Program-made: the position numbers and the translations under genes
The notes under the pieces: model-generated
Seen by the model: the letters and a program-made list of their open reading frames with translations, nothing else
Database searches by the model: none
What the model was told of the DNA's origin: nothing
IMG/VR virus record: IMGVR_UViG_3300028569_002586
Span: 93,012 to 157,011 of that record
Reading direction: 5' to 3' (one strand)
Length of the DNA: 64,000 nucleotides
Origin: a virus
Part shown: piece by piece, positions 55,188-60,641 of the stretch
Position numbering within the stretch: the stretch's first letter is position 1
Layout: the number at the start of each line of letters is the position of its first letter

Positions 55188-56630
55188 TTGCCTAATGTAC
55201 CGGATTTTCGTGATTTAGAGAGAGGAAAAAGATCTGCATTAGATAGATTTTCCTTCAAGAATGTAATTGGTGGTATATCTGTGCAAAATGCGGTACCTAG
55301 GTTCATACCTCCACCTGCACCACAAGACAACCCCGTCTTTAGCTATGTCACTGATAATAATGAAGTTATTGTTATCACAAACCCAGAGACACCTAACTAC
55401 ATCATTGTATCTACAAATGTGGCAACATTTAGTGCGGCTTTTGACTCACAAGTACTTGGATTTACGAATAATTTTGATATCAGTGATTTTTCTAACTGTA
55501 GCTTAATTTTTAATTATGGTATTGGTTTATCTGCTAATGTACAAGAAATTTTTGTAACTGAAAATGCTGCCATATCAAGCAATCTAGGAAACCTATACAC
55601 AGTTTATTACACAAATACAGGCTCTGTTATTGTTGGGTTTGCTGCCAGCAATGTGTATGTACCACCTATCACAAGTTATCCGCCCGTACCATCTCCAACT
55701 ACAACACCTACTCCCACACCCACAATCTCTGTGACACCAACCATTAGTGTCACACCCACCATTTCTGTTACTCCAACACCCACACCTACACCAACACGAA
55801 CACCCTCTCAGACACCTACCAATACTTTACCTCCCGGCGTGACGCCTTCTCCTACACCGCCCTCTTCAACTCCTACACCGACACCTACTGATAGTAGAAC
55901 GTTTATTACATATGGTGTTGCGGTTTCTGCTACTAAGTTAGATATAATCGCCGATGCACAATGTAATTTTGGTTTCTTTATGGGCGGTTATTTTGGTATA
56001 CAAGCTGAAAATTATTATCTCTTCAGTTCAACATTTAGTGATTATATTGAAACCCCGATATATGAATACGGAAACGGTACTTGGAGAATACGTAATAGTG
56101 ACGGTGATGTATATTTCACTAATAGTTATCCTTTAGCGGATAAGTTCCCTGCAAATAACTGGCAACGGGGTTCCTTCTTTGATACATATTGTACTACATA
56201 TTCAGCTGTTCCTGTATTTGTTGCTGCTGTTTTCCCCACACCCACGCCCACACCAACAAATACACCCACACCTTCAAGAGCACCTGCTCTTGTGTACAGT
56301 AGCAGTTACATACCTTTTGAAATAACAAATACAGGAATATCTTACAATATTAGTCAAATTGGCACAGGCAACCCACCCCTGACATGCTTCAGAGGTACCA
56401 ATTATGATTTTATAGTTCTAACCCCATCTCATCCTTTTGCTTTAAGAATATCAGCAGGGAACACATCTTCACCGGTTTCTGGGGCTTATAATAATAATCC
56501 TGCTGCAGGCATCACATCAGGCAGAGTAATGTTCACTCCTAATAGTGCAACACCTGACACAATTTACTATCAATGCACAATTCATAGTTCAATGATTGGC
56601 ACAATAAGTATAAAAAATTACAGTTTATGA
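55188..56630 (+). CDS. MPNVPDFR-leader protein 1: Pro/Thr-stalk multi-domain surface protein
   Basis: TTG start 8 nt after AAGGAG; two PT tracts; C-terminal FRG..YDF...HPFAL...[16 protein letters not shown] cupredoxin-like virion module. Confidence 0.75.
55684..55890 (+). repeat. Pro/Thr mucin-like coding repeat
   Basis: (TP)n and (TPTISV)x3. Confidence 0.85.
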
Positions 56631-57904
56631 ACGTTTACAAAGCAGTAGAATACCTAAGATCACTAGACATGAGCTCTCTACCCTACAAAGGGCTAACAGG
56701 CATTTACTACGATGATAAAACTGTCAACGGAATTGATACAGGAGAAAAATGCATTAAATTTTATTTTGAAACAAAAAAATCTTTATCTGAGCTTACTGCA
56801 GAAGAAATTGTACCGCAAACTGTAACTTACAACAACACTGTATTCCAAACAGACGTTGAACAAGCTCCTATATCAGAAAAACTAGTAACAGATTGTCACA
56901 ACTTGAGCAGCGCTGTTGAACCAGTGAAGAGCAACTACATCAAGAGAAGACCTCTCATGGGAGGGTGCAGCAGCATTAACATAGGAAGTTCAGATGCAAC
57001 CTTAGGCATCATGGTTCTAGATAAAAAAGATGGTCAAGTAGTGGCCCTGTCCAATTCTCATGTGTTTGCTGCAAGTCAATTGCATGGTTATTATGCCGGG
57101 GGCAATGAGATCACAGGCAACAATGTTTTAGGATTAAGTGCCAGGCAACCTGGTACAAATGGTTATAACCCTTATGGCAGTGTGGTTCCTGCCATTGATT
57201 ACATAGGCAATTGCAAAAGAGCTGTAGTGATAGGCAACAAAGATTATACAACTGATGGCTCTGGATGGATAAGAGACACCACAGTGGATGCTGCCATAGT
57301 GGGTGTGAATAAAAATTTAATCTCCAGTGTGAGTGTGAGTGCCATAGGCCTGAATGCTTCTGGTCCATTTGCATTTGCATCTGACAATGAAATTACTTCT
57401 TTGTTGGATCCTGTTTCTCCCAATTACAAAGCCCCAGTTTTCAGATCTGGAAGAACATGTGGTCCCATAGGAGCTCCAGGAAACACATATTCATGTGCAT
57501 TGAGTGTGCAATCATTTGGCATAGAACCAGTGGGAGCATACACAGGGTATGTATCAAATTTCTCTGAGAGCTTTGTAATAGAAGGCAATGTCATTGCCAC
57601 CAGAGGTGGAGATTCTGGATCTGCAATATATGCTTTGCTAAGTGCCAATGTACCTGCTCTTTCCACATGGAAGTGCATAGGACTGGTGTTTGCTGGGCCC
57701 AGTGTCACTCCAAGCTTTGGTATAGGAAGCAGAATCTCAGCTGTGTCTCAAGATCTAGATGTGGTTGCATGGAATGGCATAGTGCCTGTTCTGTCTGCAA
57801 GAACTGATACCATAGTCTTATCTGCAGGTGAATATTTGCCATATTCCACAAGTGCCATTATCACTCTATCAGGCAGAAGATATCATCAATTGGGCAGAGC
57901 ATAA
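56627..57904 (+). CDS. trypsin-like serine protease (Nal1-like)
   Basis: ATLG, LSNSHV (His), VDAA (Asp), RSGRT, GGDSGS (Ser), IGLVFAG. Confidence 0.85.
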
Positions 57905-57939
57905 TTTGAGTTTTAATCCTTGCGAGCATAAGTATAGGT

Positions 57940-58953: not shown

Positions 58954-58988
58954 TAAAACCACAGCTTTAGGCTGTATAAATATTATTT

Positions 58989-60641
58989 GTGCCCAATGTA
59001 CCTGACTTCCGTGATTTATCAAGACAGCAAAGAGCTGCTACAGATAGATTCTCTATAAAGAACGTTATCGGTCAAATATCTGGTCAGAGTGTGGTACCAC
59101 CTGCAGGTCCTTCTCCAACCCCAACTCCTAGCATAACACCTACCATCACACCCACTGTAACTGTTACACCCACCAACACATGCACTCCAACCATTACTCC
59201 AACCATTACTCCAACATCTTCTGTTACTCCCACTGTGACACCCACAAATACAGTTACACCAACAATCACACCAACTCAAACACCACCACCAACTCTTCAG
59301 CTACAAGCCATGGATGAAGTTGCTATAATATACAATCAAAATAGCAGTGATAGCGTTGCTGTAGCAAATTATTATAAGAATAATAGACCCAACTTTAATT
59401 TAGTTCGTACAGTGGGTCTGGATATTCCACAAGCTATTTACCCCGCAAGAATAGATGGGAGTGGAAATTATTTCTGTGTATCAGGTTGTGATATTGATTC
59501 ACCTTATGAGGGTTGCAGAAAATATGATCACATCAGTATAACATTAGCACAGACCCAGATAGCAAGTGTATTATCTGCATACAAAGTACAATATCCCACA
59601 ACAAAATATTTTGTGTTCATGATTGATGTACCCATTATCACTGTGCCTGATGCAGTGTTTAATGTACCTACACTCTCAGCCAGTCAAATACCTTTACTGG
59701 GTCAAAATGTTACAGGCATGGTTTATGCTAGCGCAGGCATATGGCCATTTTATATCACAGCAGCATTGAGTGCAGATTGCATTGCATACATTGACAAGAT
59801 AAAAAACGCAACACAATCTGGTCTCACACTCTATAAAGACAGGGGCACCATATACAGTGAAGACTCATATGGTGCAGGGTATGATAATCTGTTATGGGCA
59901 AAATATCCACAAACAATGTCACAGTTGAGCGCTTTCTCTGTTTATAGATCTGGCAAGCCAACAGCCAATGCACAAACCACTGGATTGACAGGCATCTTCA
60001 TGGATCAAAACACATACTGGCCTCACAACACAGGCAACATAACAGTATCTTCTGTTGCAGCATGGTCATCTTGGGGCTTCAATGGCAGAAGGTACAGTCC
60101 TTATTCAAATTCAGATAGCTTATCTGCATGGAATTGGTACAATGATCCCAGATCACCTGGCAAGCTCACCTTCACAGGCAATGACACAGGTTGGTATTTC
60201 ACCCTCACACTTGAATCTTGGAATGGACAACCACATGGTGGTTCATATGGCTATTTTGGTGGATATAGTGGTGTAGGCAATACTTCTTGGGGCAGCTTTC
60301 CAGCAGCATATGCTGGCATAAAAGATTTTAATGCTTTCAAATTGTCATCTCAATTCAATCAAGGACTACGACCCATAAGACACTCATCATACACTCAGTA
60401 TTTTGCCAAGAGCGCATTTGGTGGATCCAACTATGAATACACACCAGTTGCATGGGCTGGAAACACAGCAGAACCATTTTACCCTGGATCACTCAATATT
60501 GAATATTTGAATTACTGGATGTCAGGTGCCACAGCATATGAATCAATAAAAAATAATATAAACAACACATTCAGAATACTTGTCATAGGAGATCCTCTGG
60601 TGAGACTGCAAGGAGTGGTACCTGCGCTCGCACCCCGTTAA
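58989..60641 (+). CDS. MPNVPDFR-leader protein 3: Pro/Thr stalk plus TIGR03790-like domain
   Basis: TATAAATA-6-GTG; VAIIYNQNSSDSVAVANYY..R, SWG, GNTAEP, G.T.YES, VIGDPL. Confidence 0.65.
   Translation: MPNVPDFRDLSRQQRAATDRFSIKNVIGQISGQSVVPPAGPSPTPTPSITPTITPTVTVTPTNTCTPTITPTITPTSSVTPTVTPTNTVTPTITPTQTPPPTLQLQAMDEVAIIYNQNSSDSVAVANYYKNNRPNFNLVRTVGLDIPQAIYPARIDGSGNYFCVSGCDIDSPYEGCRKYDHISITLAQTQIASVLSAYKVQYPTTKYFVFMIDVPIITVPDAVFNVPTLSASQIPLLGQNVTGMVYASAGIWPFYITAALSADCIAYIDKIKNATQSGLTLYKDRGTIYSEDSYGAGYDNLLWAKYPQTMSQLSAFSVYRSGKPTANAQTTGLTGIFMDQNTYWPHNTGNITVSSVAAWSSWGFNGRRYSPYSNSDSLSAWNWYNDPRSPGKLTFTGNDTGWYFTLTLESWNGQPHGGSYGYFGGYSGVGNTSWGSFPAAYAGIKDFNAFKLSSQFNQGLRPIRHSSYTQYFAKSAFGGSNYEYTPVAWAGNTAEPFYPGSLNIEYLNYWMSGATAYESIKNNINNTFRILVIGDPLVRLQGVVPALAPR
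59110..59293 (+). repeat. Pro/Thr coding repeat (TPTI/TPTV)
   Basis: About 60 aa of TPT[I/V] units. Confidence 0.85.

Follow-up and report, generated by a model that had tools for sequence, protein, structure and literature searches.

A conserved N-terminal leader peptide heads otherwise unrelated proteins in a lineage of uncultured T4-like phages and may dock them on the virion

The last 64 kb of the 157-kb IMG/VR virus record IMGVR_UViG_3300028569_002586 (here G000; the record is 74% complete), referred to below as the window (64,000 nucleotides (nt), positions 93,012 to 157,011 of the record), contain three genes, here called gene 1 (55188), gene 2 (57940) and gene 3 (58989) after their start positions, whose products begin with the same short peptide, MPNVPDFR..., and continue into different bodies (Table 1). 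We refer to this peptide as the leader. The three peptides and their TTG, ATG and GTG start codons were found as the original prediction, made from the DNA letters, had described them. An in-frame stop lies one codon before the TTG of gene 1 and three codons before the GTG of gene 3, and the orthologue of gene 1 in locus L004 has an ATG start at the same residue; the leader therefore starts at residue 1 in all three proteins. A profile search of the whole 157-kb record found these three copies and no others. When a profile of the three sequences was run against the six-frame translation of the window, its own copies scored between E 1e-19 and 1e-20 and the next-best match had an E value of 1.5, a gap that rules out chance or an artefact as the origin of the shared peptide.

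Among the three paralogues, 16 of the first 27 residues are invariant. For each pair, 6-10 of the 15-21 identical leader residues are encoded by different codons, and the leader DNA is 57-73% identical, indicating that conservation acts on the protein, as had been claimed from divergence at synonymous sites. A conserved translational element in the mRNA was considered and ruled out, as the codons differ at synonymous sites. Past residue 40 the sole similarity among the three proteins is a low-complexity Pro/Thr linker. No Pfam, PHROG or NCBIfam model matches over the leader, in agreement with its earlier description as belonging to no named domain. Features of a Sec or Tat signal peptide were absent, no hydrophobic run exceeding 3 residues within positions 1-35, and a conserved prohead-protease site, [LI]-x-E, was not found among 67 distinct leaders (Glu occupies column 11 in only 13% of them and no other column fits). 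The leader thus looks like neither a Sec signal nor a capsid-targeting sequence (CTS) of the T4 type, as the original prediction had stated.

The three-row leader alignment retrieved one locus, L004, in an IMG/VR locus search, and homologues of gene 2 showed a diverged form of the same leader. A profile of 34 positions, built on 15 leaders and searched against 1.84 billion representative proteins with a threshold of E < 1e-3, matched 48 protein clusters. The match starts at residue 1-6 in 46 of the 48 and just after an evidently miscalled start in one more; the weakest, P0167 (E 9.5e-4), matches through a short repeat inside the protein and is not a leader. In the 67 distinct leaders P5 and R12 are invariant, R15 is 97% conserved, A17, S22, D9, L10 and V26 are conserved at 79-92%, and 98% have Pro or Ala as their second residue, giving the consensus M-[PA]-x-[VP]-P-[ND]-[FY]-x-D-L-x-R-x-[QK]-R-x-A-x-x-R-[LF]-S-[FY]-x-x-V in a module of about 30-35 residues. 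Subtypes of the leader open with MPNVPD-, MA.PPNF- or MPVYYPDF-.

At least 10 unrelated cargo types stand behind the leader in the 48 clusters. Those recognized by Pfam are LRR_5 and other leucine-rich repeats (LRRs), Laminin_G_3, PA14/GLEYA, RCC1, Beta_helix, DUF5672 and LCIB, and the window adds the TIGR03790-like body (a weak match) and the cupredoxin-like C-terminal domain. Most cargos have carbohydrate- or surface-binding and depolymerase-type folds. A 1609-amino-acid (aa) protein in L013 carries a pectate-lyase-like/endosialidase-N-extension domain, and its N-terminus is faint on the leader profile (6.9 bits). Searching metagenomic proteins with the leader profile had been suggested earlier as a check on cargo diversity, and the outcome clearly was not a single cargo type. 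About 60% of 63 tabulated leader-bearing proteins have a Pro/Thr-rich run starting near residue 31-52; this run reaches about 170 residues in P0172, a diverged TIGR03790-like relative, and several leader proteins (LCIB, P0171) have no such tether.

The leader occurs in 5 of 33 IMG/VR records that hold an LCIB-like protein, in 1-4 clustered copies, and is found in none of the other 28. The carriers G000, G003, G004 and L007 have 3-5 clustered copies, with five in L007, four in G004 and three in G000. G014 and G015, the latter a complete 217-kb genome, are close relatives among the 28 leader-negative records, and their gp23 proteins are 83% and 74% identical, respectively, to that of this phage. 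Among cultured phages no match was returned for the region (megablast), for the leader or for the LCIB protein (both tblastn), and gp23 is at most 34% identical to those of cultured phages. The leader is therefore a genuine, previously unannotated N-terminal module, under protein-level selection and present in multiple copies, and only one lineage of uncultured T4-like phages has it.

Eight of the proteins collected by the profile (P0121, P0125, P0129, P0134, P0143, P0153, P0155 and P0164) are only 71-107 aa long and consist of the leader, a linker and a short C-terminal segment. The segment PAN.[IL]..I.GD.L..I ends P0121, P0153, P0155 and P0164, and also P0172, while P0125, P0129, P0134 and P0143 end in other short segments.

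Table 1. Features of the leader cluster and its surroundings (window positions)
Feature	Position	Strand	Remarks
99-aa protein	53366..53665	-	membrane-like by hydrophobic segments (inspection); CPEC motif; start overlaps stop of 140-aa gene
140-aa protein	53662..54084	-	conserved CSC motif; no known family
TATAAATA late-type box	55159..55166	+	22 nt upstream of the TTG start of gene 1; GGAG in between
Gene 1	55188..56630	+	480 aa, TTG start; leader, N-domain, Pro/Thr linker, middle domain, short Pro/Thr linker, cupredoxin-like C-terminal domain
Leader copy 1	55188..55289	+	residues 1-34 of gene 1; 56-57 bits on the leader profile
Cupredoxin-like C-terminal domain of gene 1	56295..56627	+	His/Cys/His/Met kept in 5 homologues
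Trypsin-fold (Nal1-like) serine protease	56627..57904	+	start overlaps stop of gene 1 (ATGA); no leader
Gene 2	57940..58953	+	337 aa, ATG start; leader, short linker, LCIB/theta-carbonic-anhydrase-like body
Leader copy 2	57940..58041	+	start of gene 2
TATAAATA late-type box	58975..58982	+	ends 6 nt before the GTG start of gene 3
Gene 3	58989..60641	+	550 aa, GTG start; leader, Pro/Thr tether, TIGR03790-like body
Leader copy 3	58989..59090	+	start of gene 3
Pro/Thr-rich tether of gene 3	59088..59309	+	residues 34-107, 74 residues

Of the three bodies, that of gene 2 is the best defined. It matches PF18599 at 2e-26 (93 bits against a cut-off of 25) and LCIB chains in the PDB at 5e-17, which bears out the earlier assignment to the LCIB carbonic anhydrases. 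Across 53 phage LCIB-like proteins, C92, D94, H142, H156 and C180 do not vary, and the predicted zinc-site residues among them are C92, D94, H156 and C180. The AlphaFold2 (AF2) model of the protein has a mean predicted local distance difference test score (pLDDT) of 84.5, exceeding 90 in the LCIB body, which lies apart from the leader. A BFVD fold search with this model returned only weak giant-virus carbonic anhydrases and no phage structural protein, and the literature, searched for phage LCIB or carbonic anhydrase, yielded nothing relevant. The LCIB gene adjoins gp23 in another T4-like contig (L008) and lies four genes after a crAss-type capsid gene in L009. G014 and G015 have, at another place in the genome, a tandem pair of LCIB genes that carry no tag, and other phage lineages place at least three different N-terminal extensions on it. 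Since LCIB is found untagged or otherwise extended elsewhere, its body is a unit of its own, captured behind the tag of this lineage.

The body of gene 3 was less tractable. It scores 18 bits on TIGR03790 (cut-off 67) over 25 residues, while an Atlas feature search gave TIGR03790-named clusters at 0.92, which we treat as a lead; the AF2 model, computed with 5 homologues, was unusable (pLDDT 36). The proposed TIGR03790-like identity thus keeps the Atlas lead and falls below the family cut-off. Among the homologues of gene 3, the leader profile detects the leader on P0169 (52.7 bits) and P0171 (30.8 bits); P0172 has a leader-like start by eye and no profile match, and the fourth homologue, P0170, begins inside a Pro/Thr run.

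In gene 1 the N-domain spans about residues 40-157 and is followed by a Pro/Thr linker (157-242), the middle domain and a second Pro/Thr linker (344-368). In an alignment, the C-terminal domain conserves H...C-x2-H-x2-M, the full type-1 copper ligand pattern, in 5 homologues. No Pfam or PDB sequence match was obtained for this domain, so that the earlier cupredoxin-like call retains the ligand pattern and lacks a Pfam match. The same domain is present in a baseplate-block gene of this phage (G000:30963-32120, minus strand), and both copies match the C-terminal third of phrog_677, labelled baseplate wedge tail fiber connector, at 1e-11 and 1.7e-23. The baseplate/fibre block of this phage contains an RCC1-Pro/Thr protein followed by a Pro/Thr-cupredoxin-like protein. 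In a related locus, an uncalled leader-bearing open reading frame (ORF) of 348 aa (L007:5480-6526) lies just upstream of a 681-aa LRR and cupredoxin-like gene without leader (L007:6643-8688), and a stop or a frameshift may have divided what is a single gene.

A late-type promoter box had been reported for each of the three genes. This holds for gene 1 and gene 3, which have a perfect TATAAATA, a sequence seen 11 times in the window against 5.2 expected; gene 2 is preceded by CATAAGTA alone, a weak box. The TATAAATA boxes at 54337-54344 and 58975-58982 end 5-6 nt before the starts of 54350 (ATG) and gene 3 (GTG), with no Shine-Dalgarno sequence between box and start codon, and these two genes may give rise to near-leaderless late transcripts.

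The AF2 model of the gene 2 protein, based on a 53-row alignment, places helices at residues 7-20 and 23-30 of the leader (pLDDT 50-60), followed by a disordered linker at 31-43. Low-confidence helices and a disordered segment, both apart from the body, are what is expected of a peptide that folds on a partner, and we consider that the leader is probably a short amphipathic helix or helix-turn-helix folding upon binding. Such a helix might instead bind its own kind, bundling leader proteins into hetero-oligomeric bouquets that make no contact with the virion. The predicted helix at 7-30 has a narrow hydrophobic stripe (F7-L10-A17-F21), and several paralogues per genome share an identical N-terminal octapeptide, as such bundling would have it. 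The helix is however short, its heptad pattern is poor and model confidence is low, and Arg12, Arg15 and the N-terminal Met-Pro/Ala suggest a partner pocket, which makes self-association a distinctly improbable explanation.

A different role would be that of an address removed later: the leader could be a cleavable propeptide or a capsid-targeting sequence, for import into the prohead or to keep the cargo inactive, and would be cut off either by the prohead protease or by the serine protease encoded next to it. The leader is strictly N-terminal, T4 provides a precedent in the CTS of its internal proteins and of Alt, a protease gene lies within the cluster in G000, L004 and L007 and a subtilase in G004, and LCIB stands beside the major capsid gene in other phages, an enzyme cargo that would suit injection into the host. 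Against this, the leaders have no conserved [LI]-x-E, as described above, and long Pro/Thr tethers with lectin, LRR and beta-helix cargos are ill-suited to internal head proteins. The association of the protease with the cluster also has another explanation. The protease matches phrog_20754 and has a GDSGS motif (an Atlas match to Nal1_C/Trypsin serves as a lead), while PDB sequence searches with it and with gene 1 found nothing. In G014, which has no leader at all, a single 1417-aa beads-on-a-string gene (G014:28585-32838, minus strand) between homologues of baseplate genes encodes, in this order, a trypsin-like protease, a Pro/Thr stretch of about 320 aa, the N-domain of gene 1, a second Pro/Thr stretch of about 200 aa and RCC1 repeats; its protease part is 30% identical across the whole of the window protease. 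This fusion links the predicted protease to the N-domain of gene 1 and to the fibre block. In G004 the slot held by the trypsin-like protease in G000, L004 and L007 is occupied, directly after the gene 1 family member, by a Peptidase_S8 subtilase (1e-30; G004:117888-119846, L114:17888-19846), a predicted non-orthologous replacement, and the leader cluster of L005 contains no protease. Because of the fusion in a leader-less genome, the non-homologous S8 enzyme in G004 and the absence from L005, the protease is not a leader-specific processing enzyme. Cleavage of the leader by its neighbour, which had been offered as an alternative at the outset, is accordingly disfavoured, and we regard the propeptide or capsid-targeting explanation as a whole as unlikely.

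Two small genes of the opposite strand flank the cluster. They emerged when all 180 ORFs of the record were profiled phylogenetically against the leader-bearing G004 and the leader-negative G014, G015 and G016: eight proteins were specific to the leader-bearing genomes, with the 140-aa and 99-aa proteins directly beside the cluster. No Pfam or PHROG family covers either of them. Members of the 140-aa family were found in G000, L004, L007, G002, G003 and G004 (two copies in the last) and in none of the 28 leader-negative records, and the gene flanks the leader cluster wherever it is found. The 99-aa protein has a match only in G004 among the four relatives profiled. These observations make the 140-aa protein a candidate leader partner or assembly factor. 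They would also fit a leader that acts as a transient recognition tag, read by the 140-aa protein, and possibly by the membrane-like 99-aa protein whose gene overlaps its stop, during folding, assembly or export of the cargo. This co-occurrence could however reflect co-inheritance of one island within one clade, and the L005 and L013 loci, whose leaders are diverged, showed no 140-aa gene. By inspection, moreover, the leader lacks the hydrophobic core of an export signal, and the 99-aa protein, lying near the lysis genes, could be a holin. A predicted complex between the leader alignment and the 140-aa alignment scored 0.03 (mark 0.32), which counts neither for nor against binding. Taken together, we consider a transient tag rather unlikely.

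The leader could also recruit modifying enzymes, following a logic like that of ribosomally synthesized and post-translationally modified peptides, for example glycosyltransferases acting on the Pro/Thr tether or the neighbouring ATP-grasp enzyme. Pro/Thr repeats are typical substrates of O-glycosylation, and a weak ATP-grasp gene lies in the adjacent operon (52542-53432). Yet the tether is missing from the LCIB protein and P0171, as noted above, the ATP-grasp gene has no match in the leader-bearing G004, and no domain that would recognize the leader is known. Recruitment of this kind is very improbable, and it would in any case be compatible with docking.

We favour the explanation that the leader is a virion-docking peptide for accessory fibres, a functional analogue of the conserved peptide of Klebsiella-type phages, and give it an even chance of being right. 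The leader would fix accessory proteins at a single shared position on the virions of this uncultured T4-like lineage, the disordered Pro/Thr tether would keep the binding or enzymatic module away from the particle, and cargos would be exchanged by recombination just behind the leader, with 3-5 such genes per phage in a variable island. Cargos would be swappable because the leader anchor is short and self-contained. We infer docking from the architecture, the type of cargo, the gene context in relatives and a published analogue. The cargo modules are of extracellular type, yet the leader proteins carry no signal peptide; a peptide fixed at residue 1, a tether, an extracellular-type module without signal peptide, late promoters and modules of the fibre block together point to display on the particle. 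The tail or baseplate is favoured over the capsid or neck as the docking site, since some cargos are beta-helices and relatives encode these modules within the fibre block. The plug-and-play docking on capsid or tail that had been envisaged from the three genes thus stands as far as the modular tag is concerned (48 clusters, at least 10 cargos, 3-5 copies), and its virion part stays conditional.

The closest parallels are the branched systems of receptor-binding proteins (RBPs) in KP32 (gp38), KP34, K1-5/K1E/SP6 and G7C (gp63.1), in which, as here, a short N-terminal peptide is conserved, the body is exchanged and several such proteins are found per phage. In K1-5, SP6, G7C and Klebsiella phages, peptides of 7-30 residues dock on T4gp10-like domains (PMC6872550). 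KP32 RBP2, the secondary RBP, is not incorporated into the virion without its first 29 residues, and their fusion to the endosialidase domain of K1F allowed growth on the host of that enzyme (PMC13352976). Peptide length is comparable, 7-29 aa in those systems and 30-35 here (PMC6872550, PMC13352976). Several differences separate the two. A long disordered Pro/Thr tether usually follows the leader, unlike the arrangement in the branched systems; cargos here are mostly usually-monomeric domains (lectin, LRR, beta-propeller) or enzymes, whereas those systems carry trimeric depolymerase spikes; and docking has an experimental precedent there, while here it is proposed for uncultured T4-like myoviruses. 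No homology of the leader to residues 1-29 of KP32 gp38 was detected, the best score of the profile against gp38 and gp37 being -2.9 bits, at an internal position. Given this result and that no gp10-like platform was found, we propose a functional analogy and do not claim membership in that family.

Other anchors share fewer traits with the leader. The fibre and tailspike anchors of T7 gp17, P22 gp9, the CBA120 tailspike proteins and the Mtd_N type also combine a common N-terminus with divergent distal parts, but they are folded trimeric domains of about 100-160 aa, whereas the leader measures about 30 aa and is covered by no Pfam or PHROG model. T4 Hoc and other capsid-decoration adhesins, to which the adherence-to-mucus idea applies, are likewise non-essential-looking surface binding domains held off the particle. 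Hoc binds through its C-terminal domain and displays Ig-like domains; the leader has no homology to it, its anchor is N-terminal and a capsid location is not favoured here. The T4 CTS is likewise a brief address at the N-terminus that can be moved onto foreign cargo. It has about 10 aa, however, and gp21 cuts it at [LI]-x-E, a site that the leader does not conserve, and the leader cargos look extracellular.

Several observations weigh against docking. The presence of leader-bearing proteins in the virion is itself something we infer, and the searches of cultured phages found no relative. The leader cluster adjoins the lysis genes and is not part of the main structural block; in the AF2 model the leader has low pLDDT; and one cargo, LCIB, is an enzyme whose zinc site is intact, with no obvious use on a virion. 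As their first eight residues are identical, the three paralogues would have to compete for a single site. Concerning the docking partner, the profile of the T4 gp9/10 N-domain (PF07880) and T4 gp10 itself match nothing in G000, which is 74% complete; the weight of this negative is reduced by the baseplate proteins of the record, which are very divergent and mostly without a PHROG match.

A broader formulation, which we consider possible and hold only tentatively, is that the leader is a general display tag for lectins, LRR adhesins, depolymerases and an intact carbonic anhydrase, held on Pro/Thr tethers and mounted at a site unrelated to T4gp10-like domains and possibly with the assistance of the 140-aa protein. 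If so, it would amount to a new portable phage-display chemistry, and to a case of a carbonic anhydrase carried on a virion. If docking on the accessory-fibre model is correct, the leader would be a ready-made tag of about 30 residues that loads arbitrary domains on a T4-like virion, explaining how these abundant uncultured phages diversify adhesion without touching the baseplate, and a predicted and probably active carbonic anhydrase as well as serine proteases would be unexpected members of the virion-borne modules. The principle is already known; the novelty lies in the family of the peptide, in cargos that are tethered and mostly non-trimeric, a carbonic anhydrase among them, and in the lineage of the phages. 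As the leader, the 140-aa protein and several of the cargo domains have no family model, the profiles obtained here should improve the annotation of metagenomic phages.

The same phage contains fibre genes with another N-terminal motif. An Mtd_N-like N-terminus (I..RRG......L..GE.G...D) heads three of them, at window 46442-47689 and at G000 22475-24085 and 24087-24776 (both on the minus strand). Window gene 46442 and G000 gene 22475 match long-tail-fibre distal-subunit PHROG families at their C-termini, and the L005 orthologue of 46442 has a Peptidase_S74 domain. These fibres are a second, classical anchor family as predicted from their motifs. A further recurrent motif, MNxDxKLIFEAY (with the variants LITEAY and LLEQAY), heads many otherwise different small proteins, at window 2561, 5276 (minus strand) and 50114 (minus strand), and at G000 80355, L005 8123 and G015 196099 and 196850.

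Upstream of the cluster, three small genes at window 51498-52529 (minus strand) are 88-91% identical to genes of G015, where their neighbours have no match, which suggests a recent exchange between the two phage lineages. On the other side, a tRNA-Met (CAT) gene at window 61387-61461 (minus strand) directly follows the leader cluster, and beyond about 60 kb the GC content of the window climbs to 0.46, having been about 0.39 before.

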